In this document: positions 4,151 to 28,660 of the stretch, in pieces
Numbering within the stretch: position 1 is the first letter of the stretch
How the letters are laid out: the number at the start of each line of letters is the position of its first letter
Assembly: GCA_964577555.1 (NCBI GenBank)
Contig: CAZNZM010000003.1
Span: 74,047 to 106,046 of the forward strand
Direction: 5' to 3'
DNA: 32,000 nt
Source: an uncultured archaeon
GTDB taxonomy: Archaea > Iainarchaeota > Iainarchaeia > Iainarchaeales > Iainarchaeaceae
Made by a program: the position numbers and the translations under genes
Notes under the pieces: generated by a model
Told to the model about the DNA's origin: nothing
Seen by the model: only the letters and a program-made list of their open reading frames with translations
Database searches by the model: none

Positions 4151-4156
4151 TTTGAA

Positions 4157-4465: not shown

Positions 4466-4749
4466 TTTTTATGGAATACACTGTTTTTTCTTTTGTTTCT
4501 GTTTTGATTTTCTTTTATATTTGTTTGATGGTTAAGCTTCCTGCAAAGTTGCTTCTCATTGCAGGTTTTATTGTTGTTTTTTTTCAACTTATTTTTGATA
4601 ATATTATGACTGCTGTAGGTCTTTGGGTTTTTGACTTTTCGCATACAATTGGTTTAGCAGTTCCTTTTATTCCTGTTGAAAACCTTGTTTTCGGGCTTGC
4701 TTTGATGCTGGCTACAATAAGTTCTTGGGAAGCTAATAAGAATATTTAA
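4462..4749 (+). CDS. crtYd: Lycopene cyclase domain protein, heterodimeric type, subunit 2 (CrtYd-like)
   Basis: About 92-95-aa membrane protein with PVENLVFGLAL (P-x-E motif). The TTG at 4462 overlaps the crtYc stop (TTGA). An alternative ATG start is at 4471. Confidence 0.7.
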   Translation: MIFMEYTVFSFVSVLIFFYICLMVKLPAKLLLIAGFIVVFFQLIFDNIMTAVGLWVFDFSHTIGLAVPFIPVENLVFGLALMLATISSWEANKNI

Positions 4750-4754
4750 AAAAT

Positions 4755-5917: not shown

Positions 5918-5962
5918 GTAGAATATCACTATTTAATAGTAATGAATTAATAGGTGGGGGTA

Positions 5963-8755: not shown

Positions 8756-8809
8756 GGCGTAATTAAGGCGTTGATTAAAAATATTGAATCAAGTAATAAG
8801 TGATATTTT

Positions 8810-9607
8810 ATGGGAATAAAGCCACTGATAGCAATAATGACGATATTGCTTGCAAGCATAGCAGCAAGCCAAATTGTTGGATTTCAAGATACAATCTCTA
8901 TAGGTGAAACTCCTTACGAATACATATTTCATGTAATAAACAATTCTAATGAACAAAAACCATTATTGATTGAATATCATTTTCCTGTAAAATATGAAAA
9001 AATAAGCCAACCTGTTTTTATAGAGCCACAAACCCAAGAACAAATAAAAATCAAAATTTATCCTTCAAAAAAACTTGAAGGTTCAACATATGTAGGCACA
9101 ATAAAAGTCCAAATAGGCAGCGAGTTCGCAGAAAAAAATCTTATAATGGAATTCAAAAAAGAAAACAAGTGCACGATAAAGCCAGAGGCAGAGTTTGATA
9201 GTTCAGGCAGCGTAAAACTAAAATTGGTAAATCCATCTTATAATCAAAAGTCAATTGAATTAAAATCCATTAAAGGCCCAAATGATTGGGAGATAATTGG
9301 TGACAAAAATTTTATAATAAACCCGAACGAAATCAAAGAAACAAGCACAAAAATAAAAATGAAAACAACTTATTCAGGTTCTGTTGTATTTGTATTCTCA
9401 TGCCACAACGAAGAAATATTAGCAGAAGCCAAAATAGAGCACTTTGAAAAAGATGTTTTGCAACAAATTACTGGGTTGTTTACTGCAAGCCAATTCAAAA
9501 TTGATGCCACGTCTCTTGCAATTAATTTGCTATTAGGCATAGTGGCTGCAATACTTTTATTGGCTTTCATAGCAAGGTTAACAAAGTTTTATATGGTGAA
9601 AAAATGA
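8810..9607 (+). CDS. Secreted protein with C-terminal TM anchor (function unknown; beta-rich, Ig-like)
   Basis: 265 aa. Signal peptide MGIKPLIAIMTILLASIAASQ. C-terminus ITGLFTASQFKIDATSLAINLLLGIVAAILLLAFIARLTKFYMVKK. Its stop overlaps the next start (ATGA at 9604-9607). Confidence 0.75.
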   Translation: MGIKPLIAIMTILLASIAASQIVGFQDTISIGETPYEYIFHVINNSNEQKPLLIEYHFPVKYEKISQPVFIEPQTQEQIKIKIYPSKKLEGSTYVGTIKVQIGSEFAEKNLIMEFKKENKCTIKPEAEFDSSGSVKLKLVNPSYNQKSIELKSIKGPNDWEIIGDKNFIINPNEIKETSTKIKMKTTYSGSVVFVFSCHNEEILAEAKIEHFEKDVLQQITGLFTASQFKIDATSLAINLLLGIVAAILLLAFIARLTKFYMVKK

Positions 9608-11739
9608 AAACCCTAAATGCAATCCTGTTAATAGTTTTGTCAATATTTTCCTGTAGCTTTGTGCAATCCTCGAATAATCCTATATTTGAAGGGATTCCTG
9701 ATATTTCAATATATGAAAACTCCGGCAAATTGCAAAAAATAATTAATCTCAATCAATATGCGACAGGAGAAGAAATAAACCCTCTAAATTATGAAATAAC
9801 AAGACAAACAAACAATAACCTTATAGATTGTTTTATTGAGGAAAACATATTCGTAACGTGCAATGCACCACAAAAAGATTCAATAGGAATGTCTTCAATA
9901 ACCATAAAAGCCACTGATAGTAATGGAGCTTCAAAAGAGGATACTTTCAACATAGTAATATCAAAAAGATTGGAGCCTAAAGAAACAATTGTTGTTCTTG
10001 AAAGAAAAAAGGTAAGCTTGGCTCCAGGCACTTCAATAGCAATAATGTTTGAGGCTACAAACAATACTGGCGAAAAAGAATGCTATGAAATAAATTCAAA
10101 ATTGCCTAATGAAGACTTGACAGAAGTAGAAATAAAACCTGCAAAAAATCAATTTTGCATTGAAGATAAACAAACAATCCAATTTTCAATTTTCATAAGC
10201 GCGTTTGAAAGCGCAAGAACAAAAACTTATTATCCTACTTTTAACATAATTTCTTCCAAAGGACCAACAATAACACAAAACCTTGAAGTGGATGTATCAA
10301 ATACTAGCAACTTTTTAAGCATTGAAAGAGCAAGCGGTTATTTTGTATGTAAAAATCCGTATAAACAGAAAATACAATTGGATTTTCAAAACAACATTGG
10401 AAACGATGCAGGTTCAAGCCAGGAATTCAATTTGTCAGCAAGCAATCCTGTTCTTCTTCCTGAATTTGAGTATCCTAAAATAAGTTTAAGGCCAAGCGAA
10501 CAAGTGGGAATTGGGCTTATGATAAACACAAATCCTGGAACTGCATTTGGAGAATATGCAATAAAAATAACTGCTGAAAACAAAGATTACAAAATAAAAA
10601 GGGAAATAAAAATCAATTTGATTGAATGCGAAGAAGACATAATTGATGTCTATATAAATCCTGAAATAATGGATTTGAAGAAAGGGCAACAAAAAACTGC
10701 AATAATAACCATTTTCAATAAAAGCAAAGAAGAACAGGAAGTATTTGTTAATTCGGAAGGGGATTTGGAAAATAAAGTTGAATCTGTTTTTATAAAATTA
10801 AAACCGCAAGAACAAAAGAAAATAAATTTGGATATAAAAGCAAGGGAACAGGACGAAAAAGGAGAGTATGATTTGATTGTTTATGTTTGGAATTCAAAAG
10901 AAAGTGAAAAGAAAAAAATACAAGTGAATGTTCGTGCAGAGCACAATATAGAATTGGAAATATCTGGCAATGACTATCAAAGAAATATGATTGTTCAAGG
11001 GGAAAACAAAGTATTTGAGTTGACAATTTACAATTATGGGGATTATGAAGAAACAATTAAAGCTTCAGTAAAAGAATTTGGCGGGATAAAAGCAAAACTC
11101 TCGGAAGAAAACTTTAAAATCAAAAAAAACAGCAGCAAAAAAATATATGTTGCAATTACCCCTGGTTATGAAGTTGTTCCAGGAAATTATGAAGTGCCAA
11201 TAACAGCAAGGTCTGATAGTGATGGCGCCAGTCAAAATCTCAAAATAACGATTGTTAAAGCAATGCAAAAAATTGATTTGGATATTGTATCTTATCCTTT
11301 GCAAATAGAAGCGGTTCAAGGGCAAGAAAAGGAAATAAGCCTTGTAATAAAAAACAATTTGCCAAGCGAAGTAAAAAATGTAATAATTTCCATCGCAGAA
11401 AATGGAAAATATTTTATAATGCAGCCAGTGGCAATTGAAAGGCTTAATGGATTTGAATCAGTTGAAATTAAGGCTGGAATACAACCAATTGAAAGCCTTG
11501 AAGATGGAGTTTATCCTGTTAAAATAGAAATAATTTCAAATAATTTTAAAAAAAGCCAAGAAATGGTAATTAAAGTGGAAAGAGAAAAAATTTCGCAAAA
11601 ATTGGCTACTCCTGCAACAGGGCTTTTCAGCCTGACAAGTGGTGGCATAATATTGTCGGCGATAATAGTTTTGATAATAGCAATCCTTGCAGGAATAGGC
11701 GCCAATAAACTTATGCAGGGAAAACCGAATACAACGTGA
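9604..11739 (+). CDS. Secreted, C-terminally anchored surface protein: one cadherin-like repeat plus several COG1470/NEW3-like (CARDB-type) beta-sandwich domains
   Basis: 711 aa with signal peptide MKTLNAILLIVLSIFSCSFVQS. Segments such as AFGEYAIKITAENKDYKIKREIKINL and VPGNYEVPITARSDSDGASQNLKITIVK resemble the (P)G-x-Y-x-(I/V)-x-(I/V)-x-A motif of archaeal COG1470-type envelope proteins. C-terminus ATPATGLFSLTSGGIILSAIIVLIIAILAGIGANKLMQGK. GGTGA SD before the ATG. Confidence 0.85.
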   Translation: MKTLNAILLIVLSIFSCSFVQSSNNPIFEGIPDISIYENSGKLQKIINLNQYATGEEINPLNYEITRQTNNNLIDCFIEENIFVTCNAPQKDSIGMSSITIKATDSNGASKEDTFNIVISKRLEPKETIVVLERKKVSLAPGTSIAIMFEATNNTGEKECYEINSKLPNEDLTEVEIKPAKNQFCIEDKQTIQFSIFISAFESARTKTYYPTFNIISSKGPTITQNLEVDVSNTSNFLSIERASGYFVCKNPYKQKIQLDFQNNIGNDAGSSQEFNLSASNPVLLPEFEYPKISLRPSEQVGIGLMINTNPGTAFGEYAIKITAENKDYKIKREIKINLIECEEDIIDVYINPEIMDLKKGQQKTAIITIFNKSKEEQEVFVNSEGDLENKVESVFIKLKPQEQKKINLDIKAREQDEKGEYDLIVYVWNSKESEKKKIQVNVRAEHNIELEISGNDYQRNMIVQGENKVFELTIYNYGDYEETIKASVKEFGGIKAKLSEENFKIKKNSSKKIYVAITPGYEVVPGNYEVPITARSDSDGASQNLKITIVKAMQKIDLDIVSYPLQIEAVQGQEKEISLVIKNNLPSEVKNVIISIAENGKYFIMQPVAIERLNGFESVEIKAGIQPIESLEDGVYPVKIEIISNNFKKSQEMVIKVEREKISQKLATPATGLFSLTSGGIILSAIIVLIIAILAGIGANKLMQGKPNTT

Positions 11740-13145
11740 AAAATATGCGAAAAAATTTTTTTTCCTTGATAATAATGTTGCTTTTATTAGGGTTTGCTAA
11801 TTCAGAATATTTTGAAGGAAATTGCACAATATCTTTGCAGCCATGTGAAATAACAAGCTTTAAAATTCAAATCTGCAATGATACAAAAGAAAGCAAGGAA
11901 TACAATCCATTCATAATAGGTAATTCAAGTTGGGTTAAAACAGTGCCTGAATCTTTGAATGTGATGCCTGGTGCTTGCGGTAAAATAACAATATTTGCAA
12001 CTCCAAGTTGTTTGGTAAAAAAAGGAGAATATGATTTTGAAGTTGGTGTTAAAGAAATTGAAAGTGTAAAAAAAACTTGTAAACTTAACATTTTAAGTAA
12101 TTCTGCGCCAAAAATTTCAATTCAACCAAGTTACTTGTTTGCAAATAAATGTGGTAATGCGAACTTTTTGATTAACTTGAAAAACAACGAAAGCAAAATT
12201 TCAAGAGTATTGATTGTTTTGCAGACAAATCCTGAAAATATTGTTGGGTTTCCAAGCCAGGAAGTGCTTTTGCGTGGAAACGAAGAAAAAAGCATTCCTG
12301 TGAATTTGGCAATACCTTGTGAAACGCAATTGAAAGAGTTGAATTTTAATGCAACAGCGGTATTGCAGAACAATCAAAAGAGCATTGCTGTTTCATTGAT
12401 AAAAATTTTGGAAGAACATCAAATTGACAGAGAACAAAGCGTTGAAAGCCGAAATATTAACAATGGTTTTGAAGAAGGGGAGTCATCATACAATATTAAT
12501 GCCTTTGAAATCAATCAATTTTTTGAACCTGGAATTGAAATATCAAAAACAGATTTTGTGGAAAAAATTTGTTTAGGAGAAGATAACTTTGTGGATTTAA
12601 TTGTGCATAATAAAACTTCTCAAACATTTGTTGGAAATGTTCGCATAAAAGGCGGCGAAGCTGTTGTGGCAAAAGACACTATTGAAATAAATCCTGGTTC
12701 TAATTCTGAAATAAGATTAATAGTAAATCCGAAAATCACTAGTCATAAAAAATTGCCGTTTAAGAAAAATTTGACAATTGTATTGTCTTCGGGTTATGTA
12801 AGAATAGAAAAGGATTTTACTTTTGATTTTTTGAATTGTTATGTGGGAAGTGAAGGCGTATCAGTTGAAAATTCCCGAGAAGAAGTAAATAAAATTGACT
12901 ATGGGTTAATTAAAGATAATAACGGGCAATCAAACAATGTTGGTGACAAAAATTTGTTTGACGCTAACAAGTTGCAAGGCTTTGACAAAAACTCTAATGT
13001 ACAAAAATTGTTGACTGATGCAATGGCTAATTTGGTAAATAAAACTTTTGGCTTTGCTTCAAAACCTGTTTATTTTTTTGCATTTCTCATTGTGATAACA
13101 ATTGTGGTTATTTTTGTTTCAATTTATAGAAAAATCAATGAATAA
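11736..13145 (+). CDS. Secreted, C-terminally anchored protein (unknown; beta-sandwich-like domains)
   Basis: 469 aa. The GTG at 11736 overlaps the upstream TGA; an alternative ATG at 11745 gives MRKNFFSLIIMLLLLGFANS as signal peptide. C-terminal TM plus basic tail: KPVYFFAFLIVITIVVIFVSIYRKINE. Confidence 0.8.
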   Translation: MKNMRKNFFSLIIMLLLLGFANSEYFEGNCTISLQPCEITSFKIQICNDTKESKEYNPFIIGNSSWVKTVPESLNVMPGACGKITIFATPSCLVKKGEYDFEVGVKEIESVKKTCKLNILSNSAPKISIQPSYLFANKCGNANFLINLKNNESKISRVLIVLQTNPENIVGFPSQEVLLRGNEEKSIPVNLAIPCETQLKELNFNATAVLQNNQKSIAVSLIKILEEHQIDREQSVESRNINNGFEEGESSYNINAFEINQFFEPGIEISKTDFVEKICLGEDNFVDLIVHNKTSQTFVGNVRIKGGEAVVAKDTIEINPGSNSEIRLIVNPKITSHKKLPFKKNLTIVLSSGYVRIEKDFTFDFLNCYVGSEGVSVENSREEVNKIDYGLIKDNNGQSNNVGDKNLFDANKLQGFDKNSNVQKLLTDAMANLVNKTFGFASKPVYFFAFLIVITIVVIFVSIYRKINE

Positions 13146-15110: not shown

Positions 15111-15207
15111 GCCCTTGTAGTATAGGCTGGATAGAATGCAAGGTTCCGGTCCGTTTTGGTTTTCGGGGGATTACCTTGAGACCCGGGTTCAAATCCCGGC
15201 AAGGGCT
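15111..15207 (+). tRNA. tRNA-Arg (anticodon CCG) with a 23-nt canonical intron (15150-15172)
   Basis: Acceptor GCCCTTG / CAAGGGC. T arm CCGGG-TTCAAAT-CCCGG. Anticodon stem CAAGG / CCTTG, with spliced loop TTCCGGA. The D stem is weak (G.U, U-A, A/A, U.G). The intron forms a bulge-helix-bulge motif. CCA is not encoded. Confidence 0.78.
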
Positions 15208-17221: not shown

Positions 17222-17971
17222 TACTAGTCGTCTTTTGCCTAACGTGTTTGTTTTTCTTATAAAAAAATTTTCAAATACATTTGCAATTTTTTTGTGTAGG
17301 CTTTGCAAGTCGTTTTTTTAATTTTTGTCATTTTTTTTGATATTTTTATTTTAAAAGTTCAAATCTTTTTGTTTTGGCGAGCCGAGTTTTTTTGTCTTTT
17401 TTGGCAGGTGTTTTTTTGTCAATTTTTTTTGTAATTTTACTTTTTTTCTTAATTTATTTTTTTTAAATTTATTTTGTTTTTGTCTTTGTTTTGGCTGGTT
17501 GTTTTTTTTTGTTTCTTTTTTTTGAGTTGTTTTTTTAGATGTTTGTTTTTGTAAGCTGTTTTTTTGTTTTTTTGTGAGCCAATTTTTTTTGTCATTATTT
17601 TTTTTTGAATTCTTTTTTTTGTCAATTATTTTTTGTCAAGTTGTTTTTTTTATTTTTTTTTAATTTTTTTGCTTGTTTTCAAGTCGATTTATTTTTTAGA
17701 TGTTTTTTTTGTCTTTGGCTTTGGTTTTGTCACGCCAGCTTTTTTGTTTTGTTTTTTTTTTTTGTATTTGGGATTTGGTTTGTACCCCCATCATTTTTTT
17801 TTTTTTTTTTTTGTTGTTTTTTTTGTGAACCGTTTTTTCTAATTTTTTTTGCTTTATTTTTTTTGTTATTTTCAGTGTTGTGTTTGTTTTTTATTTGCAA
17901 TTTGTTTTTTTTGCTAACTGTTTTTTTTGACAATTTTTATTTTTTTTATGAGTTAATTTTTTTTGTTTGTT
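17222..17971 (+). repeat. Oligo(T)-tract array C, the largest (750-bp non-coding spacer)
   Basis: By manual count, roughly three dozen + strand runs of T6 or longer, including T19 (17794-17812) and T12 (17752-17763). Words: GCGAGCC (17377-83), GTGAGCCA (17574-81), GTGAACCG (17825-32). T-run+GTCA(T/A) occurs at about 17323, 17411, 17583, 17613 and 17629. T8-GTCTTTGGCTTTGG at 17703. T-run+AGATG at about 17530 and 17692. Confidence 0.65.
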
Positions 17972-18976
17972 TTATTTGTAAAGCATGCCGTAGTACATGT
18001 TTTCTAATATTGCCCAATATTCTATTCTTTTTCCTGTTGAAGGATCTATTGGCATTTTTTCACTGACAAAATATTCTGGCGGAAAGGAGTAATATGCTAC
18101 TCTTTCTCCTAGTCCTGTGGCAACTATTGCTGGGAATTCTCTTCCAAGTTGGTATTTTTTTTGTTCAAGCCAAAAGTATTCTTTTGGTGGTTCGGTTACG
18201 ATGTTTGAACCGTAATCCAAAACTGCAAGGGTTTTTTGGTACGCGTCGGTGTTTATTTTTACAATGGAAAAATCGCCGTAAAGTTTTAGGTTTTGGGATA
18301 TTCCAAGGGTAAGCCGGTCGTTTTGGTTTAAGACATTCAAAAACCCTGTGTAATCATCGTTGCATTCTTTTATTTCACAGTAATTTCCAATGTATTCAAC
18401 GCCAAGAACGTAATCAAAAGAAACTTGTTTGTTGCCGCTTTTTCTTGCCCAAGGGCTTATGAATGATTCTGAACCTCCTTTTTTTCTTTCTGAATATTTT
18501 AAAAAGTAATTTTTGTCGGATTCGAATTCAGGAGCCGTTGTTCCTGCGTTTCCTATCCAAACAAGTTTTCCTCCATGATTGACGTATTCTTCAAACATTT
18601 TCAATTCGCTTATGCTCATTTCTCTTGCTTTTTCGACAATAACTAATTGGTGTTGTTGGAGCATAGGCAAGGTTACCAATTCTATGTCTTTTAAAGTTAT
18701 GTCTGCCCTGAATTTTGGCGATCTCAATGTTTCGTAAAGAAAATCAGGGTCTCCTATTCCTTCTTCTCCGCTAACTATAAGTATTTTCGGTTTTCCGTTG
18801 GAAATTATTCCGTAATATAAGTCGCATAAGGTAGGGTTGTATGCTCCGCACGAAATAATGTTGAAATGTATGAAGATAAAAAACAGTGTGAATAGTAGTA
18901 TTAAAAGTATTAAAATGTTGATTGCTATGTTGTTTTTTTTTGGTTGGGTTTTTAATTGTTCATTTGGATAAGTCAT
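17972..18976 (-). CDS. N-terminally anchored extracellular protein; possible class-I glutamine-amidotransferase-like (ThuA/DUF4159-like) fold
   Basis: 334 aa. TM segment IAINILILLILLFTLFFIFIHF. The pattern KPKILIVSGEEGIGDPDF ... QHQLVIVEKAREMSISELKMFEEYVNHGGKLVWIGNAG resembles flavodoxin-like GATase1/ThuA modules. The fold assignment is tentative. Confidence 0.7.
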   Translation of the reverse strand: MTYPNEQLKTQPKKNNIAINILILLILLFTLFFIFIHFNIISCGAYNPTLCDLYYGIISNGKPKILIVSGEEGIGDPDFLYETLRSPKFRADITLKDIELVTLPMLQQHQLVIVEKAREMSISELKMFEEYVNHGGKLVWIGNAGTTAPEFESDKNYFLKYSERKKGGSESFISPWARKSGNKQVSFDYVLGVEYIGNYCEIKECNDDYTGFLNVLNQNDRLTLGISQNLKLYGDFSIVKINTDAYQKTLAVLDYGSNIVTEPPKEYFWLEQKKYQLGREFPAIVATGLGERVAYYSFPPEYFVSEKMPIDPSTGKRIEYWAILENMYYGMLYK

Positions 18977-18989
18977 ATTATAGGAACTA

Positions 18990-19203
18990 CTGATGCTTAA
19001 TTAATTTTTTCGTATTTTGGCGTTTTGCATGGATTTTTTGTTTTTGGTTTTTATAAAGTGTTTTGTTGCTTGAGCTAATACAAACCATTTTTTTTATTTT
19101 TTTTTATGTTTTTTTTTTAATTTTGTGTTTTGGTTGTTATGGTTGGTTAAGCTAGTTTTTTTTGTTGTTTTAAATCAAGGTTTGTTGGTCTTTTTATTTT
19201 TTT
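18990..19203 (+). repeat. Oligo(T)-tract array B (short spacer between the 1122-aa gene stop and the 334-aa gene promoter)
   Basis: T6-T10 runs closed by G or A, for example CATTTTTTTTATTTTTTTTTATGTTTTTTTTTTAA at about 19087-19120. It lacks an exact GCGAGCC word. Confidence 0.45.
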
Positions 19204-22200
19204 TTAATTTGAAAAGCATGTGTTGGCGTTGAATCCTTCGTTGGATAGGTTGTTTAGTTTGTCTCTGAAATTAGAGATTATTTCTTGTTCGTTCCAGTAT
19301 ATTCCTACGTTTAGAGGTGCTTTTGAGTATCCTTGTTCGATTGTTCCGTATGCTATGCATGTTTGTTCGTTTTCTATTTTGTTTAATGTATCGCTTATTG
19401 TCCATAATGCTTGGCTTGGGTTGTCGAGTGTGATTTCAGTATCTGTTCCTTTTATGTATCTTGCACCGCTGATATTTCCATTGTCATTTAATGTTGGAAC
19501 GTATATTACTCCTTGGTTTTGGCAGGCGTTTTTTATTCTTATTTGGTCGCCTTTACTTGGGGCATAAAGTATTGTTTCAAGAGCAATGTCGTTTTTGGAA
19601 GTGCTTTCCCTTCCAAATACATATATTACGCGTGTGTTTTCCAATTCTTTGGCTATGTCGCATTTTGGGCCAGTGTATGAGCTTAGTTGTGAGTCTGTTC
19701 CTATTAGTTCTGGCAATGGTTTTCGAGTGTCAAGATCGTTGCATATCGGGGTTTCATCTTTTAGATATGCTATTTCCACTAGCCTTGCAAGACTTGGGCC
19801 TGCATCTATGCTTCCTTTGCTATCTTTTATAATGTATCCCATGGCGTTTTTTTTGCCATCGTTTTCTGCTTTGAAAATTATTGGTATTGGCAGCGAGGCA
19901 GCGAATGTCATGGAGTATTCTGGGGTTTGGTTGTTTGTTTCTTTTTTTGAGATTGAAAGTATTTTTCCTGGTTCGTTTTTGCTTAAACTTATAAAGTCGT
20001 TTTTGCGTTCTACTTCAATTATTGCAATTGGTTTGGAGTCGTTTGTTGTTGGAATTGTATAAACGTCAAAGTCGTGCCTTTCGTTCAATATAAAAAATGG
20101 GACTTGGCTGTTTTGGTTTTTTAGTTTGAAGCCAACTCCGTAGCCGTCTCTATGCAATACGTCTCCGGTTTTTCCAACGTAGGCGTCGATTGGCAGATAG
20201 TATAGCAGGTTTGCTGGGAATTCTTCGTCAGTTATTTTTGTGAATTTGACTAATATTTTTGCTTTTGGGTTTCCTTCATTATCAAATAATTTTTGGAATT
20301 TTGAATCGTCCAATTCAAACGAAATTGTAATCAAGTATTTTCCTGGTTGGAGTATTGGTTCTGGCGTTGAGAATACAAGCCTTGTTTGGTCTTTGAAATA
20401 TTTGTCCCAGGACATTTGTTTGGCGTTTCCTGTAGTATAGTATTTGATTATTTGTGCTTGGTTGTCAAAAAATCGTTCACGCATAAAGGCGTCAAAGTCG
20501 TTTCTGAAGTCTTGAGAAAAGCCGTCTCGCATCATATAAACTGGGAAAGATAGTTTAGAATTGGCTTGTGCAATGTTTCCTTCAGATATTAAATCGTTTA
20601 TTGTGTTGAGTTTTTTTATTAGCATTATTGAAAATTGTGTTGAATCGCATACGTTATAATTGCCTAAATTGTCTGGAGAACAAAAGTTTTCTGAAATGTT
20701 GTTGGGTCTCCATTCGTATTTTATTTTTGGTTTTACGTCTTTGCCTGTAAATGCAGTATTTCTGCCTGTTGAAATAATAGAGCCATCAAGTTCTCGGCAT
20801 ATGCCTGCTGAAACGGCTTTGATTTCAATCATGTATTTTTCCTTGTCAATCCAAGCCAAATTTGTATTTGTTATTATTGGCTCGTCAGTTATTACTTTTC
20901 TTGAAGATGTTCTTCCGTAAACTCTTGCACTGTTTGGGTTTTCTTGTATTATAAAAATTTCGGTGTCGTTGCTTGCTATTCTTTGTCCTAAAGTGTTAGT
21001 AGTGAATTTTTCTCTTGTTAATGTATTTGTGAAGCTGACTTTTCCGATTGTGAAAGAAACCATGCCGTGGTTGCCAATTGGAAGTTCAGGTGAGAACAAG
21101 CCAAGGTCTTTTGTACCTTCAAAAATATTGATTGTTGCTTTTTGTAATGGTGTTTCGGCTTTTGTATAGCTTTGAGGTCCAAAAGAGATGTCAATAATTC
21201 TGTCTTGAACTGTTTCTCCGTCAAAAGTTTTTCCTATGCGAAAGAAATCGCTTTTGTAATTGTTGCCTATACTTGGATCATTTACTCCTATTATGCCTTC
21301 CATTTTCCAAGTGTAATTTTTGAATGTTTTGCCTTCTGGGTCTATTTCCCCTGGAACAGTGAATTCTGCTAATAGTGATTCTTCTATGTCGCCTGTGTGT
21401 GAATTATTGTAATATTTGAGTGTTTCTGGTTTGTTGCATGCGTCGCCAGAATTTGGAACGGCTACGCTGTGAAAGCTTCTTGACACCACTAGTCTTCCTG
21501 TTTCGTCATAAATTTCAAAGAAATGAACTGGGACGCCGTATGATGTTGTTTCGGGGCTGTCGTTGCAGAATTGTGCGTAATATTTTTTTCCAGGTTCTAC
21601 TTGGAAACTTCCTGTTTTTAAAAATGGGGTGATTGCAATTGCGTTTACCGTGAATTCCACGTCCATATTGATTGGCTCTATTTTTTTTCTTGAATCGGCT
21701 GTTTTTACCCCGTATATGTCTGAATATGTTATTTTTAGGGATAGTTGTTCTTGTTGTGGTGAAACGTTTGGTCTTTGAGCTGTTGCTTTCATTTTCAAAA
21801 TATAACTTGCGTTTCTGCCTAATTCCAAACCTGGTTTGAAATCTGGAAAACTGCAATCTTTCAAATACCCTCGCGAACCTCCGGTGCTGCAAAAACCTTC
21901 TGCGGGTTCCACGCTGTCTATTTTTATATCTACGTTGCTTTCATTTTTTACTTCCCAGAAGAAATTCACTTCTTTTTCCGTTTCGTTTCCCCAAATGCTT
22001 TTAAGCAATCCTATTGTGTTGCTTTTTGCTGGTTTTATGCTTATTTGTCCTGGCACTACTATTATTTGTATATCCGCGTATTTTACCCAGTCATTAGGGT
22101 TTGTCGGATTTGCATTTATTTTTCTTGTGTATTCTATTCTGAAATCATATGTTCCGGCTTGGTTGAAAGGCAATGATTCCAAATAATCAGTTTTGATTCC

Positions 22201-22572
22201 ATGCAATACGTTTCCTCCGTCGCATGCTTCGGCGTTTGTAATTTCATAGCCTTTTATCCATTCTTCTTCGGTTCCAAGCCCTGTTATTTTTACGACTTTT
22301 AAAGGCATTTTGACTTCTCTTCTTGCGCCATCCACGCATTGGTCTATGTATGTTGAAATGTTTGTCAGTTTTAGTTTTGTTCCTTCTGGCACAACAAATG
22401 TGCGTTTATTGTTGTTGGATGTTATTTCTTTGAATTCAGGTGTAAAAGTTATTGTCATGGATGGCGATGTATTGATTTCAAAGTAATGGCAGTGCCTGCC
22501 TGCAAAAACAGGTGAAGAAAATAGCGTTAGGATTATTGGCAATAATAATGCAATTGCTTCAAAGCGTTTCAT
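19204..22572 (-). CDS. Very large secreted protein (about 1122 aa), Cys-containing, no membrane anchor, no recognisable domain
   Basis: The ORF track extends to 22599. I prefer the ATG at 22572 because AGGAGG (minus strand, 22580-22585) lies 7 nt upstream and the product starts with a signal peptide, MKRFEAIALLLPIILTLFSSPVFA. It overlaps the upstream gene by 14 nt. Confidence 0.85.
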   Translation of the reverse strand: MKRFEAIALLLPIILTLFSSPVFAGRHCHYFEINTSPSMTITFTPEFKEITSNNNKRTFVVPEGTKLKLTNISTYIDQCVDGARREVKMPLKVVKITGLGTEEEWIKGYEITNAEACDGGNVLHGIKTDYLESLPFNQAGTYDFRIEYTRKINANPTNPNDWVKYADIQIIVVPGQISIKPAKSNTIGLLKSIWGNETEKEVNFFWEVKNESNVDIKIDSVEPAEGFCSTGGSRGYLKDCSFPDFKPGLELGRNASYILKMKATAQRPNVSPQQEQLSLKITYSDIYGVKTADSRKKIEPINMDVEFTVNAIAITPFLKTGSFQVEPGKKYYAQFCNDSPETTSYGVPVHFFEIYDETGRLVVSRSFHSVAVPNSGDACNKPETLKYYNNSHTGDIEESLLAEFTVPGEIDPEGKTFKNYTWKMEGIIGVNDPSIGNNYKSDFFRIGKTFDGETVQDRIIDISFGPQSYTKAETPLQKATINIFEGTKDLGLFSPELPIGNHGMVSFTIGKVSFTNTLTREKFTTNTLGQRIASNDTEIFIIQENPNSARVYGRTSSRKVITDEPIITNTNLAWIDKEKYMIEIKAVSAGICRELDGSIISTGRNTAFTGKDVKPKIKYEWRPNNISENFCSPDNLGNYNVCDSTQFSIMLIKKLNTINDLISEGNIAQANSKLSFPVYMMRDGFSQDFRNDFDAFMRERFFDNQAQIIKYYTTGNAKQMSWDKYFKDQTRLVFSTPEPILQPGKYLITISFELDDSKFQKLFDNEGNPKAKILVKFTKITDEEFPANLLYYLPIDAYVGKTGDVLHRDGYGVGFKLKNQNSQVPFFILNERHDFDVYTIPTTNDSKPIAIIEVERKNDFISLSKNEPGKILSISKKETNNQTPEYSMTFAASLPIPIIFKAENDGKKNAMGYIIKDSKGSIDAGPSLARLVEIAYLKDETPICNDLDTRKPLPELIGTDSQLSSYTGPKCDIAKELENTRVIYVFGRESTSKNDIALETILYAPSKGDQIRIKNACQNQGVIYVPTLNDNGNISGARYIKGTDTEITLDNPSQALWTISDTLNKIENEQTCIAYGTIEQGYSKAPLNVGIYWNEQEIISNFRDKLNNLSNEGFNANTCFSN

Positions 22573-24274
22573 TTTTTTGCCTCCTTGCAGACAAAGCAAT
22601 TAGAACTAATAAGACAATTATGATTGCGGCAAGTATGATAAATTCAAATTGAACACTGAATTGTTCTTTGTAATTTTCAATTTGTGTGCTTGATTCTTCT
22701 TCACATGTTCCTTTACAGCAAATTCCTTTTTCTGATGCAATGTCAATTTTGTTTCCGTTGCATTTTGTGTTTGATTCGCAAAGCACTCCGCCAAGTTCGT
22801 TGCACGATTTTGGTTTTTCAACTGTTAAATCTATTTCTTTTGATATTTGTTTGTTGTTTTTGAAGTCGTTTACAAGCACTAAATATTTTTTTCTTTCAAT
22901 TGGGTAATATTTTTCAAGGCAATTGCCGGAATCGAAAGATTCATAATATCTTTCTAGGGAATTTTCTGCTTCAACAACCGAAATTGACAAATTAATGTCT
23001 TCTTCGTTGCCGTTTGCTGCAAAGCCGCAAGCCTTTATTTTGAGTTCTGATGGCTCTGAAAAAATCGTTTCAAGCCTGATTTCTCCCTTTTTTCCGTTAT
23101 AATCTGTTTCTATTGGAAATATTTCAAAGCAATACTTGTCGTGGGTTGTGTTGTCTTTTTCTATTGCGCTGCATACTGTGAATTTTTGGTATGCCAAATC
23201 AGGCGTGAAATTTGCGTTTATTTCTTTTTCAATTTCTTTGAATTTTAAAGCAGGTATGTGTTGTTTTCCTTCGAATATTTTTTTTGCGTCTTTTTCTATC
23301 CAAATTGAAACGTTGAAATCGTAAAAATCCGGTTTTGTGTAATGGTCCGGAGAAGAGCCTATTAATGCATAAATTTTGACTGGTTTGTTTGGTTTTAATT
23401 CATCTCCATAAAAAGCCATTTTTTTTATTTTTGCGGTGGGTCCTTCAACTATTGCTCTATTTCTGTAAAGCGAGATTGTTTTGCCGTCTTTGTCCATTAA
23501 CTCTATTCTGATTGCGTATGCGCCTGGCATTGCTGGTGCTTTGAGTGTTAAATTGACTTGTTTTTCTTCGTTGGCTTCCAATTCAAGGTTTGTTTTTGCT
23601 TCTGTTAAAAATTTTTCGCATGCTGTGTCGTCCCAATCGCATAAACCAGTCCAAAGAACAAGGTTTTGTAATTTTTGATTTGACTGGTTTTTCAAGAAAA
23701 TTTTACCTTCAATGTTTTGTTCTGGTTTAACCCAAGTTCCGATTGGTCCTGTGTCTCCGTTGAATTCTGTTTTTGTTCTTATTATGGTTGCGTTAGGGAA
23801 AGAGCCTGTTCCTTGTACTTTGAATTCTTTTTCAACAGGGTTGAGGAAAATATGAGGTATTCCGGTTATTGGGGATCTTTTTGTTTTGAAGTATGCTAAA
23901 ATAGTGTAAGTTCCTTCTTTGATATCTTTTGGCAGTGGGATTTCAAATGGGATTTTTTTTTCTTGGTTGGGCAACAATGCTATTGGGAACTTTTTTTCAA
24001 GGAAAATGTTTCCATTGTCTGAGAGTTGGGATGGATAACTTATGCTGCCTTTTGGTCCTGAAGCGATTTCTACAATTATTTCAGAATCATAAAATCCTGC
24101 TGAATCAGAATTGCCTGCTCTAAAATATCCTTTTAAATTTTCTCCCGCCTTGAGATTGTCTTTTTCAAGGTTTATTTCTACAAATCCTGTAAAAAATATG
24201 CTGGCTGATTGGGTTGGCATTGCCGAGAGAATCAGGATTATAATGCACATTGTTTTTGCAAAATAGGTTGCCAC
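22559..24274 (-). CDS. Secreted protein with CARDB-like beta-sandwich domains, C-terminal Cys-rich module and TM anchor
   Basis: 571 aa. The GTG start directly abuts the upstream TAA (TAAGTG). Signal peptide MATYFAKTMCIIILILSAMPTQSAS. C-terminal module CNELGGVLCESNTKCNGNKIDIASEKGICCKGTCEE, then FIILAAIIIVLLVLIALSARRQK. Confidence 0.85.
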   Translation of the reverse strand: MATYFAKTMCIIILILSAMPTQSASIFFTGFVEINLEKDNLKAGENLKGYFRAGNSDSAGFYDSEIIVEIASGPKGSISYPSQLSDNGNIFLEKKFPIALLPNQEKKIPFEIPLPKDIKEGTYTILAYFKTKRSPITGIPHIFLNPVEKEFKVQGTGSFPNATIIRTKTEFNGDTGPIGTWVKPEQNIEGKIFLKNQSNQKLQNLVLWTGLCDWDDTACEKFLTEAKTNLELEANEEKQVNLTLKAPAMPGAYAIRIELMDKDGKTISLYRNRAIVEGPTAKIKKMAFYGDELKPNKPVKIYALIGSSPDHYTKPDFYDFNVSIWIEKDAKKIFEGKQHIPALKFKEIEKEINANFTPDLAYQKFTVCSAIEKDNTTHDKYCFEIFPIETDYNGKKGEIRLETIFSEPSELKIKACGFAANGNEEDINLSISVVEAENSLERYYESFDSGNCLEKYYPIERKKYLVLVNDFKNNKQISKEIDLTVEKPKSCNELGGVLCESNTKCNGNKIDIASEKGICCKGTCEEESSTQIENYKEQFSVQFEFIILAAIIIVLLVLIALSARRQKNETL

Positions 24275-27200
24275 TTAATCAACTCCTTTATAGTAATCTT
24301 CAATTGTAATTAAAAAGAATGGATCTTCTAGGTTGTTTGTCAGGCCTGTGTTGGAAAGTATCAGTATTTCTTCTCTTGAGTTTGGGGTTTTGTTTATTTG
24401 CAATGGTGTTATATTGAGTTTTCTTGTGAATTTGTTGGCAAGGTCATTGTAAGGGTATGATTTGTTCAGGTTGTTTTCAGCTGGATCTTCTAGGCCTGTG
24501 TATGCTTTGTTTATTATGGCTACTTTCTCTTTGCCGTTTAAGAAGTCAAGCGTGTATTTGTTGTTGAGTTCGTCGCCCGCAAGCATTTCTGGGTTAATGC
24601 GTGTTATTACTAGTCTTGCTGTTTCGTCGTTAATTATAACTTTTACTATTCCTGCTCTATAAATTTTTGTTTCGCCTTTGTATTTTGCCAAAACATAAAT
24701 CGGGTGTATCCCTAATTGCTTATTGGATGATACGTTGAAAGTCGCTTTGTTTCCAGGTGTTAGCGTAATAGGTTCTGATTCGTTTAATGTTTCCGAAAGC
24801 CTTGTTATTGAATCTTTTATCACTATGTCGCTTTCCGTGTCTTTTGCAAGTTTTATTTCTATTTCTTTTTCGCATTCGTTTTGTATATTAAAATTGGTTG
24901 TATTTTTTCTTTGTATTTGAAGGATTAATTCATTTTCTATTTCTGGTGTTTCATTGTTTTCTTTTGAAAATTTTACGCATTGTATTGTTTCTTTTTGCGG
25001 CAAAGGGATTGACACGGTTTGCAATTCTGCGCTTGCGGTTTTATAATTTGGCAGTTTTTCAGCTTTAACAATTATTTTTTTGCCGCTTTCAAAAGGCGGC
25101 ACCGTCAAATTTACTATTCCTGAATTGTTTGTCAGGTAATTTGTGTTTTTTGATATTTGCGTGTCCGGGTCTTGAGGGTTTTCATACATTTTTATTTCGG
25201 CTTCGTTTATTGGGTTGTTTCTTTCATCTTTTGCGGTGGCAAGAACCATTGTTGTTATTCCTGCAGTGATTGTAGTTGGTTGCAGTGTCAGTAAAATGTT
25301 TTTTAATCCTTCAACTGCTAAATTGGCTATAAATGTGTCTCCTTTGGTTCCAAGGTTCAAGCTTAAATTCAAGTCTGCTTCTTGCAAAGGTTTTTTTGCA
25401 ACGAATTCAACTCTGTATTCTTGTCCTGTTATTTGTTGGTTTGCGCCGAATTCTCCTATTGTTCTCTCGTTTCCAACAGTTATTTCAAGGGGGTTTAAAG
25501 CGTTTTTGTTTTTTACTGTCATTTTGACGTTTGAATAGCTTTTTCCTGATAAATTCAAAAGCGAGTATGTTAACGTATATGTTTTTCCTTCAAGCAGCTT
25601 GTAAATTTTTTGTTCTTCCAGCGGAATGGTTCTTTCTTCATCAATCAAATTTACTGATGTGAAAACGATTCCGCAATTAGATTTGCATATTGGGGCATCA
25701 AGTCTTGCACTCCAAAAATATAATTCTCTTGGTTTTGGTTTAAATGTTTCAACACCGTTAATTGTTCCTTTTGCACCCCAGCGCATTTCTATGATTGTAT
25801 CTGGTTTTTGTGTTTCTGGAATTTCTTTTATTTTTACTGCCGCTGAAATTATGTAAGTGGTTTTTTCGGATGTGCCTAATGAAATTACTGCTTGTTTAGC
25901 GTCGCCAGAGGTTATGGAACAATCAGCATAGTCGTTTTCAGGGTTGAAGCATCCTGAATAAACCACTTCTGTTGATGCCGCATTTATTCCTGTTATTACT
26001 ATTTTGCTGTCATTGGAGTTTGTTTGGTTTTGAAGCCCGGCTCTGAAAACCGCTTTGAGGTTTTCTATTTTGTCTCCTGTTTGAAGCCTGAATTTGAAAA
26101 CGTATTTTTTTCCTGATTCTATTTTGTCTGCAATTCTTCCATCTTCTTTGAAAACGTTTTCCAATTCTATTTTGAATTCTGGATTTGCTGGGGGTTCTGG
26201 CAGTTTGACAAGTGTTACTGTTTCTATTTTTTTTACGTCTGGTTCTATTGTTATTTGTCCTGTTTCAGTTTTCAAATACCCGTTTTTTTGTATTATTAGT
26301 TTTGGTTTTGCATCTACTTTGAATTTTACTGATTCTGTCAATCCGTTGTTTTGAGTGATTTTTTTGGCTAGTTCTTTTCCGTTTATTGAATCTATGAAAC
26401 TGACGTTTGCACTTTGCACTGCTTTGCCGTCAACGTCAACTACTTTGACTGCCAATTCGCCGTTAGCCAGTACAATGGTTATTGGCAATTCTAGAGTTCT
26501 GCCTGGTCTGAGGTCTGCTTTTGCCGATTTGCCTGTGTTTTTTGCACCATCCACGTATTTCACTGCTTCTGCGTAATAATTGCCCGGTGGCATGTTGTTT
26601 GCTTCAAATATTCCGTTTGAATCGGTTTCGCCTTCAACGAAAATAATTGGGTTGGATTTTTCATAAATAGCCACGCTTGCGTTTGGTACGCTCTTTCTTG
26701 AATAGTCATTGACAATTACTTTGATTTTGCCCGAGTTAGATTGTTCAGCTTTTTCGATTTTGATTTCTTGCGGCTGTGTGCTGTCAATTGGTTTGAGATC
26801 TAAATGCGGTATTATTTTTCTGACATATTCTGGGTGGCTTGCTATTGCTGAATAGTTTTTGTCAGGTTCCAGGTTTATGAAAGAGACAATTCCGTCAGAG
26901 CCAGATGTTTTTAATACGCCTGAGTTTTGCAAGCCGATTATTAGGTTTGTATTGACTCCTTCTACTGCTGTTGAGGATTTTTTGTCAATAAATTTCAAGA
27001 GTGCCTTTTTTGCATTGTTTGGTTTTTCCAAGAGTATTTCTATTGTTTTTGTGTTTCCTTCTGAAAATTCAGCAGCTCCTATTGTGAATTCGTTGCTTTG
27101 TCCTATTGTATAACCTGTGTTTTCTGGAGGAATTGCTTCTGCAATATAAGTTCCGAGTGGGACGTTTGGAATTATTTTGGATCCGCTGTCGTCTGTGTAG

Positions 27201-28183
27201 CCTCCGTCAATTATTGTTATGCCGTTAGATTTTATTTTGATTTTTGTTCCGCCTATGCCTGTAAGCAGTGTTTTGTCTTTGACGCTGACTCTTAAAGTTG
27301 CATTGATTTTCTTTTTTGAAAGCCTGATTACTTTTGTCCCTTCAAATGATGCCAAGTCGATTAATTCTCTTGCATCGTTGAAACCGGTTGCAGAAACATT
27401 TATTGTGAGCATTCCGCAATTTGATTGCACTGAAATCCTGTGGTTTGGTCCGTTGCCTCTTATTGGCGAGGGTGAAATTCCTGAATTGTTGCATGAAAAT
27501 GTAAGGCTTACATTGACGTTTGGCGCTATTAGATTGCGCTCCTCGTCCCTTAGCTCTATTCCTATTTGTTTCACTTTTGTTTCTTCGTATTTTTTGAGTT
27601 TTATGCGGTAAAGTTTTTCAGGTTGTATATCCAATACATCGGCGTATTTTTTGAATCTGTTGTCATCAACCGAAACATTGATTTTTTTTCCGTAAAATTC
27701 GGTTGTGAATTCCCCGCTTGCATTTGTTTTTTTTGTTTCAGTTTTTTTTCCAAGAGAAAAATTAACTGATATGTCTTTGACTGGCTTGTTTGCTTCATCG
27801 GTTACGATGAATTTTGCCGGGCTTTTTGTAAAACCGAAAAATTTCAATATTGGGTCAAAAATCGTTTTTAAGATGTTGCCAATGGGTTCAAGTGGCCCGC
27901 CTTTTTCGAATAATTTTATTATTGGCGAAAGTGTTTCTGCAATGAATTTTACAACTGGTTCAAGTGGTCCGCCGTGTCCGCCAAAAAATAGAAGCAGAAG
28001 CAAAGAAACTACGAAAAGAAAAAATAGGATTACTAGTATGAATGATGGAAAGTATTTGTCAATTGGGTCGATTATATTGTATATTGGGATTTTTTCGTTT
28101 GCTTTGTCAAGTAGTTCATAATACTTGTCTTCAAAAAAATAATAAACTTCTTTGATTTGTTGTATAAGGTCCTCCAATGCCAC
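24275..28183 (-). CDS. Giant N-terminally anchored envelope protein (1302 aa) with about 6 tandem carboxypeptidase-regulatory-like (transthyretin-fold) domains and a long uncharacterised beta-rich C-terminal region
   Basis: GTG start at 28183. A cytoplasmic segment of about 45 aa is followed by TM FPSFILVILFFLFVVSLLLLLFF and a duplicated GGPLEP juxtamembrane motif. Repeats include IKVIVNDYSRKSVPNASVAIYE...GETDSNGIFEANNMPPGNYYAEAVK and LRVSVKDKTLLTGIGGTKIKIKS...YTDDSGSKIIPNVPLGTYIAEA. Confidence 0.9.
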   Translation of the reverse strand: MALEDLIQQIKEVYYFFEDKYYELLDKANEKIPIYNIIDPIDKYFPSFILVILFFLFVVSLLLLLFFGGHGGPLEPVVKFIAETLSPIIKLFEKGGPLEPIGNILKTIFDPILKFFGFTKSPAKFIVTDEANKPVKDISVNFSLGKKTETKKTNASGEFTTEFYGKKINVSVDDNRFKKYADVLDIQPEKLYRIKLKKYEETKVKQIGIELRDEERNLIAPNVNVSLTFSCNNSGISPSPIRGNGPNHRISVQSNCGMLTINVSATGFNDARELIDLASFEGTKVIRLSKKKINATLRVSVKDKTLLTGIGGTKIKIKSNGITIIDGGYTDDSGSKIIPNVPLGTYIAEAIPPENTGYTIGQSNEFTIGAAEFSEGNTKTIEILLEKPNNAKKALLKFIDKKSSTAVEGVNTNLIIGLQNSGVLKTSGSDGIVSFINLEPDKNYSAIASHPEYVRKIIPHLDLKPIDSTQPQEIKIEKAEQSNSGKIKVIVNDYSRKSVPNASVAIYEKSNPIIFVEGETDSNGIFEANNMPPGNYYAEAVKYVDGAKNTGKSAKADLRPGRTLELPITIVLANGELAVKVVDVDGKAVQSANVSFIDSINGKELAKKITQNNGLTESVKFKVDAKPKLIIQKNGYLKTETGQITIEPDVKKIETVTLVKLPEPPANPEFKIELENVFKEDGRIADKIESGKKYVFKFRLQTGDKIENLKAVFRAGLQNQTNSNDSKIVITGINAASTEVVYSGCFNPENDYADCSITSGDAKQAVISLGTSEKTTYIISAAVKIKEIPETQKPDTIIEMRWGAKGTINGVETFKPKPRELYFWSARLDAPICKSNCGIVFTSVNLIDEERTIPLEEQKIYKLLEGKTYTLTYSLLNLSGKSYSNVKMTVKNKNALNPLEITVGNERTIGEFGANQQITGQEYRVEFVAKKPLQEADLNLSLNLGTKGDTFIANLAVEGLKNILLTLQPTTITAGITTMVLATAKDERNNPINEAEIKMYENPQDPDTQISKNTNYLTNNSGIVNLTVPPFESGKKIIVKAEKLPNYKTASAELQTVSIPLPQKETIQCVKFSKENNETPEIENELILQIQRKNTTNFNIQNECEKEIEIKLAKDTESDIVIKDSITRLSETLNESEPITLTPGNKATFNVSSNKQLGIHPIYVLAKYKGETKIYRAGIVKVIINDETARLVITRINPEMLAGDELNNKYTLDFLNGKEKVAIINKAYTGLEDPAENNLNKSYPYNDLANKFTRKLNITPLQINKTPNSREEILILSNTGLTNNLEDPFFLITIEDYYKGVD

Positions 28184-28210
28184 GAAAAAACCCCGCTTTT
28201 ATTTTGGACT

Positions 28211-28225
28211 CTTAAATAAAGGGTT
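28211..28225 (-). promoter_or_regulatory. Candidate TATA box of the giant-protein operon
   Basis: The minus strand reads CCTTTATTTAAGAG about 28-35 nt upstream of the GTG at 28183, implying a short or absent leader. Confidence 0.3.
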
Positions 28226-28289
28226 ATAAAGTATTTAAAGTAATTTATGGTTGTTTAATAGCTTAAAAATCGTTTTTTCTTTGTTTTAC

Positions 28290-28660
28290 GTTATTTAAGT
28301 CATTTTTTTCACTTTTAAAAAAATCAAAATTTTTGTTGTCTATTTTGGTAGTCGGCTTTTGGAATTTTTTTCGCCAAGCCAATTTTTGTATTTTTTTTGT
28401 CTTTGGTTTGGTTTTTTTTTGCGAGCCATTTTTTTTTAGTCATGTTTATTTTTTTTTTAATTAAAATTGTTTTGTTTTTTTTTGATTTTTTTTTATTTTG
28501 ATATTTGCGGACTTTTTTTGTCATTTTTTTTGTTTTTGCCCTGTTTTTTTTGTTATCTGATTTTTTTATTTTTTAATTTTTGAATTTTTTTTTAGATACA
28601 GATTATTTTTTTGTCTTTGTCTTGCTTTTTTGTTGTTTTTCAAACTAAACTTTTTTATAT
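28290..28660 (+). repeat. Oligo(T)-tract array D (inside the about 500-bp divergent promoter region)
   Basis: T7-T10 runs with CGCCAAGCCAA (28371-81), T8-GTCTTTGGTTTGG-T9-GCGAGCCA-T9-AGTCATG (28391-28444), GCGGAC-T7-GTCAT-T8-G (28508-28533) and T9-AGATAC (about 28586-28600). Confidence 0.6.

Follow-up and report, generated by a model that had tools for sequence, protein, structure and literature searches.

A minus-strand gene block of an uncultured Iainarchaeota archaeon as a probable split version of a giant stalk-and-head surface protein

DPANN archaea are thought to live by cell contact, and hardly any of their surface proteins has been assigned a function. In bacteria, giant adhesins of the RTX/Bap type such as MpIBP and LapA are fixed to the envelope at one end and carry a distal module on β-sandwich extenders. 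Among archaea, the SlaA/SlaB surface layer (S-layer) of Sulfolobales combines a large secreted glycoprotein with an adjacent protein that has a signal peptide and a C-terminal transmembrane helix, with immunoglobulin (Ig)-like domains and many N-glycosylation sequons (10.1101/2023.10.27.564410). A preprint names an MSTP-like protein, A0A2G9N319, as the S-layer protein of Iainarchaeota. MJ1_0160, MJ1_0707 and others of Nanobdella aerobiophila are putative Ig-like surface or S-layer proteins with a proposed role in envelope formation or host contact (10.1101/2023.10.27.564410). Here we describe a 10-kb block of four minus-strand genes, numbered 1 to 4 in the direction of transcription and coding for proteins of 1302, 571, 1122 and 334 amino acids (aa), in a stretch of 32,000 nucleotides (nt) from an uncultured archaeon of the Iainarchaeaceae (NCBI GenBank assembly GCA_964577555.1, contig CAZNZM010000003.1, positions 74,047 to 106,046 of the forward strand), hereafter called the window. 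We argue that this block is probably a split, multi-gene version of a giant stalk-and-head surface protein of Iainarchaeota whose parts, the products of genes 1-3, assemble with one another.

What the block appears to share with the RTX/Bap-type adhesins is a design logic of anchor, extender and tip; unlike them, it has neither RTX repeats nor a type I secretion signal, it relies on an N-terminal transmembrane helix in an archaeal single membrane, and Pfam and NCBIfam searches revealed no homology. The Ig-like proteins of cultivated DPANN archaea are of the same general kind, being large, glycosylated, anchored or unanchored and without a match to characterised families, but they belong to a different phylum and, judged by their description, are set apart by the lack of the N-terminal motif and head signature reported below. 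The true homologues are giants of Iainarchaeota/Diapherotrites whose only NCBI label is 'carboxypeptidase regulatory-like domain-containing protein' (for example MBI2530172.1, 2823 aa, P0198 in our library). Like the block, they have the N-terminal motif with the transmembrane anchor, a stalk of transthyretin-like domains and, at the C terminus, the head module. These giants are single polypeptides, whereas the block has separate stalk and head genes, an unrelated N-terminal half of the head protein and an extra anchored protein encoded between the two. No description of the family, of its N-terminal motif or of its head module was found in the literature. Giant β-sandwich surface proteins of DPANN archaea are thus a known kind, and what is new is the split form with its extra anchor, together with an uncatalogued C-terminal domain.

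The split was recognised through relatives in which a single chain of 2,000-2,900 aa contains the N-terminal motif of gene 1, a transmembrane helix, a β-sandwich stalk and the C-terminal ~530 aa of gene 3. In one such protein of 2189 aa (P0112), the N-terminal 1195 aa align with aa 4-1233 of the gene 1 product (E 6e-87), reaching 60% identity over 43 aa in the N-terminal motif, and the chain also aligns with aa 607-1074 of the gene 3 product (E 6e-35 against the whole library). Scanning the six-frame open reading frames (ORFs) of 60 fetched loci with phmmer revealed the same fused pattern in L010-12, L023-25, L029-31, L033, L038 and L056. With a family profile, the head module was located at the C-terminal end in 53 proteins of more than 1900 aa. 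Of the 150 best representatives, 45 carry the N-terminal motif followed by a transmembrane helix (median 2341 aa, all between 1976 and 2823 aa) and 49 a signal peptide only (median 1115 aa), and none has a C-terminal transmembrane helix. Because stalk and head lie on one chain in these relatives, genes 1 and 3 can be read as coding for the stalk and the head of one surface protein family, present here as separate genes. By homology, three forms of the family can be told apart, one fused, one with two genes and one with three; in the two-gene form (L028, L029, L034) the downstream head gene has a signal peptide of its own. The block has the N-terminal motif with a single transmembrane helix (aa 1-74 of gene 1), the transthyretin/CarboxypepD_reg-like array (gene 1) and the ~530-aa Cys-rich C-terminal module (aa ~576-1122 of gene 3); these are not on one polypeptide, being divided between genes 1 and 3 with gene 2 in between. 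Fused giants are surrounded by housekeeping genes and have no 571-like or 334-like neighbour. The family is multi-copy: a metagenome-assembled genome (MAG) has several members, among them tandem pairs of paralogues. Fused giants are often tandem pairs of divergent paralogues (L029, L031, L033, L038, L041, L042, L045, L056, L060); with 2,300-3,000 aa each, such a pair takes up 14-18 kb of coding DNA in a genome of roughly 1 Mb.

Gene 1 is predicted to code for the N-in anchored stalk subunit of this family. Its cytoplasmic motif (YY..EDKYY.LLDK.N..IPIY.IIDPIDK) has no match in Pfam, is present in nearly all giants of loci L010-L060 and matches the N termini of giants in more than 30 loci by phmmer; hydropathy gives one hydrophobic stretch, at aa 40-74. 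The protein matches CarboxypepD_reg in Pfam (8e-19) as well as Big_1, SdrD_B and SpaA, and the same Pfam families also occur in the fused members P0112 and P0118. The initial annotation had counted about six transthyretin-like domains, and a hidden Markov model (HMM) iterated over ten orthologues indeed located six such repeats, at aa 124-173, 298-368, 395-460, 488-558, 578-643 and 981-1056. Full-length orthologues are 30-36% identical. The C-terminal ~640 aa, for which no homology had been recognised earlier, have no match among the curated families of Pfam, but they are conserved in split and fused relatives, aligning with the orthologue in L002 and with P0112 through about aa 1233-1300. The protein has more N-glycosylation sequons than expected (23 against 13.8±3.3), while cytoplasmic neighbours have 0-2. 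Just past the transmembrane helix, at window positions 27839-27976 (aa 70-115), lies a duplicated GGPLEP...K(F/T)I(A/F) amphipathic insert that is missing from the L002 orthologue, where the alignment has a 39-residue gap. In L001, an 88%-identical relative, the giant appears as two gene calls of 563 and 759 aa; a run of ten N at L001 2137-2146 marks a scaffold gap, and this break is an assembly artefact.

Gene 3 is predicted to code for a secreted head subunit, its product having an N-terminal signal-like stretch and no other transmembrane segment by hydropathy. An AlphaFold2 model built on a 36-sequence alignment, with a mean predicted local distance difference test (pLDDT) score of 85.5, shows an all-β N-terminal half (aa 29-576) and a head module of α/β plus β structure with pLDDT around 90. 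The head module is marked by the signatures YCD[SA]TQFS, DGFSxDFRxDF, LYYLP[IF]DG...RxGYGVGF and FWWN, and by the invariant residues C592, G610, W621, C631, C642, D643, Q646, F647, D683, D688, F689, D692, P794, G800, R808, Y811, G812 and C944. It always occupies the extreme C terminus, with a tail of 0-30 aa in most representatives, and is joined elsewhere to PKD plus dockerin, VWA or apiosidase-like regions. In 16 head modules examined, Pfam and NCBIfam searches gave no match beyond scattered single-member noise, profile searches found no PDB sequence, and the full-length gene 3 protein has no Pfam match. The initial annotation had seen no homology for this protein, which holds for curated families only: a word-index search returned one relative (88% identity), and an exhaustive HMMER search was needed to recover at least 311 related clusters at 50% identity. 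About twelve of these clusters are full-length homologues with 33-42% identity; the remainder share only aa ~576-1122. Part of the head module (E 8e-12) was also found in a 1625-aa protein encoded at 157-5034 of L043, a 9.6-kb contig binned as 'Candidatus Falkowbacteria', a candidate phyla radiation (CPR) bacterium, which may reflect mis-binning or transfer between ultra-small archaea and bacteria.

The gene 2 product combines an N-terminal signal-like stretch with a C-terminal transmembrane helix (aa 537-566), preceded by the Cys-rich knot that the initial annotation had pointed out. Its six Cys residues fall within aa 491-524 and are conserved in the family, whose consensus reads SC...GG.LC..GE.C.G...CC.G.C. 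The conserved core of the family is the C-terminal part, consisting of a β-sandwich, the Cys knot and the transmembrane helix, and a 219-aa version in L004 keeps nothing else. The family is small (16 clusters) and gave only subthreshold β-sandwich matches in Pfam; the CARDB and PEGA families, suggested earlier, were not among its matches. It has no counterpart within the fused protein P0112. Since, in the loci scanned, a gene 2-like gene lies solely between the stalk and head genes of the split form, the 571-aa protein is probably an extra anchor or adaptor. An identical protein (100% identity) is encoded on a 50.6-kb Joint Genome Institute (JGI) metagenome contig (3300037501 Ga0394875_0000993) with the same gene order as the window.

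The organisation of the block agrees with that of an operon expressed as a unit for genes 1-3 (Table 1). All four ORFs announced by the initial annotation were found, its four topologies were reproduced by hydropathy, and direct reading of the sequence bore out both junctions that it had described. At the first, the GTG of gene 2 abuts the TAA of gene 1 and is preceded by AAGGAG 8 nt upstream; at the second, the ATG of gene 3 lies 14 nt within gene 2, whose end contains the AGGAGG Shine-Dalgarno sequence. Genes 1-3 are translationally coupled, and their products are probably made in matched amounts. In line with the earlier statement that no catalytic domain is recognisable, none of the four proteins has a catalytic Pfam or NCBIfam domain.

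Table 1. Positions of the genes and features of the block in the window.
Feature	Position	Strand	Description	Basis
Putative archaeal promoter region of the block	28184-28240	minus	TTTATAA at 28230-28224, 47 nt upstream of gene 1 GTG	inspection only
Gene 1	24275-28183	minus	1302 aa, GTG start	ORF
Cytoplasmic N-terminal motif (aa 1-45) and single transmembrane helix (aa 40-74)	27962-28183	minus		hydropathy, family motif
Five transthyretin/CarboxypepD_reg-like β-sandwich repeats (aa 124-643)	26255-27814	minus	sixth repeat at aa 981-1056	iterated HMM, Pfam
Gene 1 C-terminal ~640 aa	24278-26206	minus	no curated family	conserved in split and fused relatives
Gene 1/gene 2 TAA-GTG junction	24272-24277	minus	translational coupling	direct sequence reading
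Gene 2	22559-24274	minus	571 aa, GTG start	ORF
Gene 2 Cys-rich knot (aa 491-524)	22703-22804	minus	six Cys	Cys positions; family-conserved
Gene 2 C-terminal transmembrane anchor (aa 537-566)	22577-22666	minus	followed by RRQK	hydropathy
AGGAGG Shine-Dalgarno sequence for gene 3	22580-22585	minus	within the end of gene 2 (read 22585-22580)	direct reading
Gene 3	19204-22599	minus	1131 aa from TTG; 1122 aa from ATG 22572 (19204-22572)	ORF
C-terminal head module (aa ~576-1122)	19207-20847	minus	Cys-rich	shared with C-termini of 480-2823-aa proteins
Gene 4	17972-18976	minus	334 aa	ORF

We propose the following model for these proteins. In the complete single-chain form, a ~45-aa cytoplasmic motif and an N-in transmembrane anchor are followed by a transthyretin/Ig-like stalk and a ~530-aa globular head, which as the extreme C terminus would sit at the membrane-distal tip. 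In the clade of the window, the anchored stalk (1302 aa) and the head are separate products of the translationally coupled operon. The head is here the 1122-aa protein, composed of a Sec signal peptide, a β-sandwich N-terminal half and the head module, and the clade-specific 571-aa protein is encoded between the two. We infer that, outside the membrane, the three products come together by non-covalent contacts to form an anchored stalk that bears the head, and that the 571-aa protein may serve as a second anchor or adaptor holding the otherwise unanchored head. Such an assembly would most likely display the head for adhesion or for contact with other cells or substrates. Because the family is exposed, fast-evolving, sequon-rich and multi-copy, adhesion or contact would fit it better than a housekeeping wall. 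The initial annotation had seen in the block a multi-subunit surface structure made of a base, a partner and a cargo or tip; for genes 1-3, which fusion, coupling and the position of the 571-aa gene mark as a functional unit, these roles are better rendered as stalk, extra anchor and head, while gene 4, considered below, is probably not part of the structure.

Several observations weigh against this model. For the N-terminal half of the gene 3 protein, no counterpart could be detected in the fused giants: when it was compared by hhalign with the region just before their head module, the probability was 0.1. Collinear fission as the origin of the split form is therefore rejected, and the split form is better described as a modular variant than as a clean fission product. 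A Foldseek search with the whole gene 3 chain returned only Ig-array matches with template modelling (TM) scores below 0.12. A distant gene 2 homologue in a MAG labelled 'Aenigmarchaeota' (L063 10001-15135) overlaps by 4 nt a downstream 1190-aa gene whose product has no head module, and no stalk gene lies upstream; the gene 2 family is therefore not strictly tied to the stalk-head system. To judge by this locus, the family may partner large secreted proteins more generally. Finally, a 334-aa gene is retained downstream in six of the seven split loci where this could be tested, and a functional link to the other three is possible.

A bolder variant of the stalk-and-head model concerns the ~530-aa Cys-rich module itself, which might be an undescribed docking or oligomerisation domain, possibly also a head that binds or lyses the envelope of a host. 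Through it, anchored stalks of the same family would take up secreted members whose payloads vary (β-sandwich arrays, VWA, PKD/dockerin, an apiosidase-like region), giving a modular display system specific to Iainarchaeota of which the operon in the window would be the fully dissociated form. We hold this to be doubtful.

If the proteins instead formed an S-layer-type envelope, its outer canopy would be the secreted 1122-aa protein in the role of SlaA and its membrane stalk the 571-aa protein in the role of SlaB; the N-anchored giants would be extra pillars, with their C-terminal modules co-assembling in the layer. A large secreted subunit encoded side by side with a smaller C-anchored one is indeed the arrangement of SlaA/SlaB (10.1101/2023.10.27.564410), and the distant gene 2 homologue is again coupled to a large downstream protein. 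The occurrence of the C-terminal module on both anchored and unanchored proteins would suit co-assembly, and many sequons and Ig-like domains are present. However, searches with three profiles matched no solved chain, SlaA and SlaB included, no S-layer family of Pfam was found, and neither SlaA nor SlaB was among the top 50 Foldseek matches in the PDB. The likeness to SlaA/SlaB is thus one of how the parts may work; the block, known from its genes, additionally has an N-anchored giant and belongs to a multi-copy family, which would be unusual for a main S-layer protein. A preprint assigns the S-layer of Iainarchaeota to another, MSTP-like protein (A0A2G9N319), which we set apart from the block proteins on its description, and no MSTP-like (DUF1608) domain was matched by Pfam in the four proteins or in members of their family. 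A head module combined with PKD/dockerin, VWA and apiosidase-like regions also looks more like a display family. We consider an S-layer unlikely.

It is also improbable, in our judgment, that genes 1-3, or all four, code for independent surface proteins that are merely co-transcribed, without forming a complex, and that owe their arrangement to the local dynamics of a gene family through fission, domain shuffling and insertion. The conservation of the block bears directly on this point. Since full-length homologues occur in the same order in at least 12 other lineages, the genes of the block are real. The order of stalk, 571-like and head genes is kept throughout this set, the proteins being conserved over their full length with 30-43% identity, and the homologues come almost exclusively from MAGs of 'Candidatus Iainarchaeum'/Diapherotrites. 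All split loci form one syntenic clade, however, and this clade has also kept GH130 and TGT on the flanks, as well as the 334-aa gene, so that conserved order alone is weak evidence. Within this clade the three surface proteins, which have paired conserved Cys, are fast-evolving relative to TGT, which is 63-65% identical. Independence is further in keeping with a modular family that exists in one-, two- and three-gene forms with varied N-terminal partners, and with the unrelated N-terminal half of the gene 3 protein. Against it, many lineages have stalk and head on one chain, which is classically read as pointing to a functional link; the overlapping or abutting reading frames have been retained, the unanchored head protein needs to be held at the surface, and wherever a 571-like gene was found, a large partner gene lay downstream.

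A four-subunit machine with the 334-aa protein as an integral base or partner of the giants, as the initial annotation had it, appears very unlikely. The protein is anchored by an N-terminal transmembrane helix (aa 14-45 by hydropathy) and has an extracellular domain, which would agree with such a role. The gene after the head gene is 334-like in L001, L002, L004, L013, L016 and L017, and the subfamily of more than 50% identity co-occurs with the split block. On the other hand, gene 4 is separated from gene 3 by a 227-nt spacer with a TATA-like TTTATAA box, in relatives the distance between the two ranges from 0 to 860 nt, and L014 has no such gene within 5.7 kb. It evolves at a near-housekeeping rate (54-59% identity across the split clade, compared with 30-43% for the other three) and has no sequons. 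In the MAG CAZHNO01, fused giants (L042, contig 1) are unlinked to the 334 homologue (L003, contig 2). The 91 homologues detected are spread over several DPANN lineages, and those of 40% identity or less stand alone, beside Sec61β in four of five such loci (L003, L008, L064 and the P0090 locus; in L006 the gene lies among other genes). Because its family is wider than the block and elsewhere stands alone beside Sec61β, gene 4 probably codes for a conserved neighbour and not for a subunit; it would be a DPANN envelope protein that has a transcript of its own, is conserved more widely than the block and lies downstream by chance in the syntenic clade.

The Sec61β loci (L003 9732-10936, L008 9614-10927, L064 7729-8945 and the P0090 locus) have the 334-aa family gene divergently oriented to Sec61β and show a further regularity, with an Ile/Val-type tRNA synthetase gene upstream and a ~280-aa gene downstream in three of the four, L008 having a 600-aa gene instead. 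This neighbourhood hints at a role of the ThuA/GIFT-fold family in secretion or envelope biogenesis.

The possible GATase1/ThuA-like fold that had been suggested for gene 4 was found in an AlphaFold2 model with a pLDDT of 93.6 (61-sequence alignment). Foldseek matched this model to the ThuA-like structure 4pxy (E 4.6e-8, TM scores 0.47/0.62) and, together with it, to 4jqs and 4e5v (E 5e-8 to 1e-5, probability 1.0), to the GIFT domain of IFT52 (5fmr, E 5.9e-6) and to class I glutaminase-like GH42 domains. The HMM search that had been proposed for DUF4159/ThuA placed the protein below the curated cut-offs of all families: ABC_transp_aux scored 13.6 bits against 34.7, IFT52_GIFT 12.4 against 27.2 and GldG of NCBIfam 10.8 against 389.85, these subthreshold matches lying on aa 99-159. 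By its model, the gene 4 product has the class I glutaminase-like fold of ThuA, GIFT and GH42 domain B proteins. True amidotransferases have a Cys-His-Glu triad, whereas inspection of gene 4 showed no Cys at the nucleophile elbow, the strand at aa 137-141 being followed by GNAGT (consensus GDAGT). Unlike ThuA and GIFT proteins, it is membrane-anchored and extracellular, with two pairs of conserved Cys, as expected of an extracellular domain (C43, C51, C200 and C205 being the only conserved ones), and with extra β-strands at aa 209-296 of the model.

An archaeal type IV pilus was rejected, the N termini being Sec-type signals (MKRFEAIALLLPIILTLFSSPVFA/G) or long signal anchors, and no PilB/PilC-like genes were found within the window.

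The neighbours of the block are housekeeping genes (MetK, TGT, tRNA-Arg, GH130). The tRNA-Arg(CCG) call at 15111-15207 (plus strand) is 97 nt long, which suggests an intron and is consistent with archaeal origin. An S-adenosylmethionine synthetase at 752-1915 (minus strand) has MetK-type Pfam domains (S-AdoMet_synt N/M/C), which we take to be of the bacterial/eukaryotic and not of the archaeal type. At 2654-5651, genes for a squalene/phytoene synthase and, nearby, for a flavin amine-oxidase-type protein, possibly phytoene desaturase-like, suggest carotenoid or isoprenoid modification. Another envelope locus at 5954-13145 (plus strand; 933, 265, 711 and 469 aa), with Big_9, HYDIN-like Ig and NPCBM_assoc-type matches, is conserved beside the block in L001; a paralogous origin of the two was dismissed, as its products have no sequence relation to the four proteins.

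T-tract arrays had been taken to bound the block. They do occur on both flanks, but they are not specific to it because similar ones lie at 419-748; we reject them as block boundaries and regard them as a property of the genome's spacers. On the plus strand they fill the long intergenic spacers at 419-748, 17411-17979, 19088-19131 and 28383-28591, with a loose period of 13-17 nt and units such as TTTTTTTTGTCAW, and they are A-rich on the coding strand of the adjoining minus-strand genes. TTTTTTGYSAR occurs 10 times, compared with 2.6 expected.

For a group of archaea thought to depend on contact with other cells, the analysis defines a family that comprises at least 311 clusters, comes almost exclusively from Iainarchaeota and can be recognised by three signatures, the N-terminal motif, the stalk and the head. 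The split form supplies the head as a separate soluble protein of 1122 aa, which makes it experimentally tractable, and offers a natural test of the association of stalk and head. Should the head turn out to have no docking or host-binding role, the family would be one more lineage-specific cluster of surface glycoproteins; if it is a docking or host-binding domain, it would provide a handle on the cell-cell interactions of Iainarchaeota.

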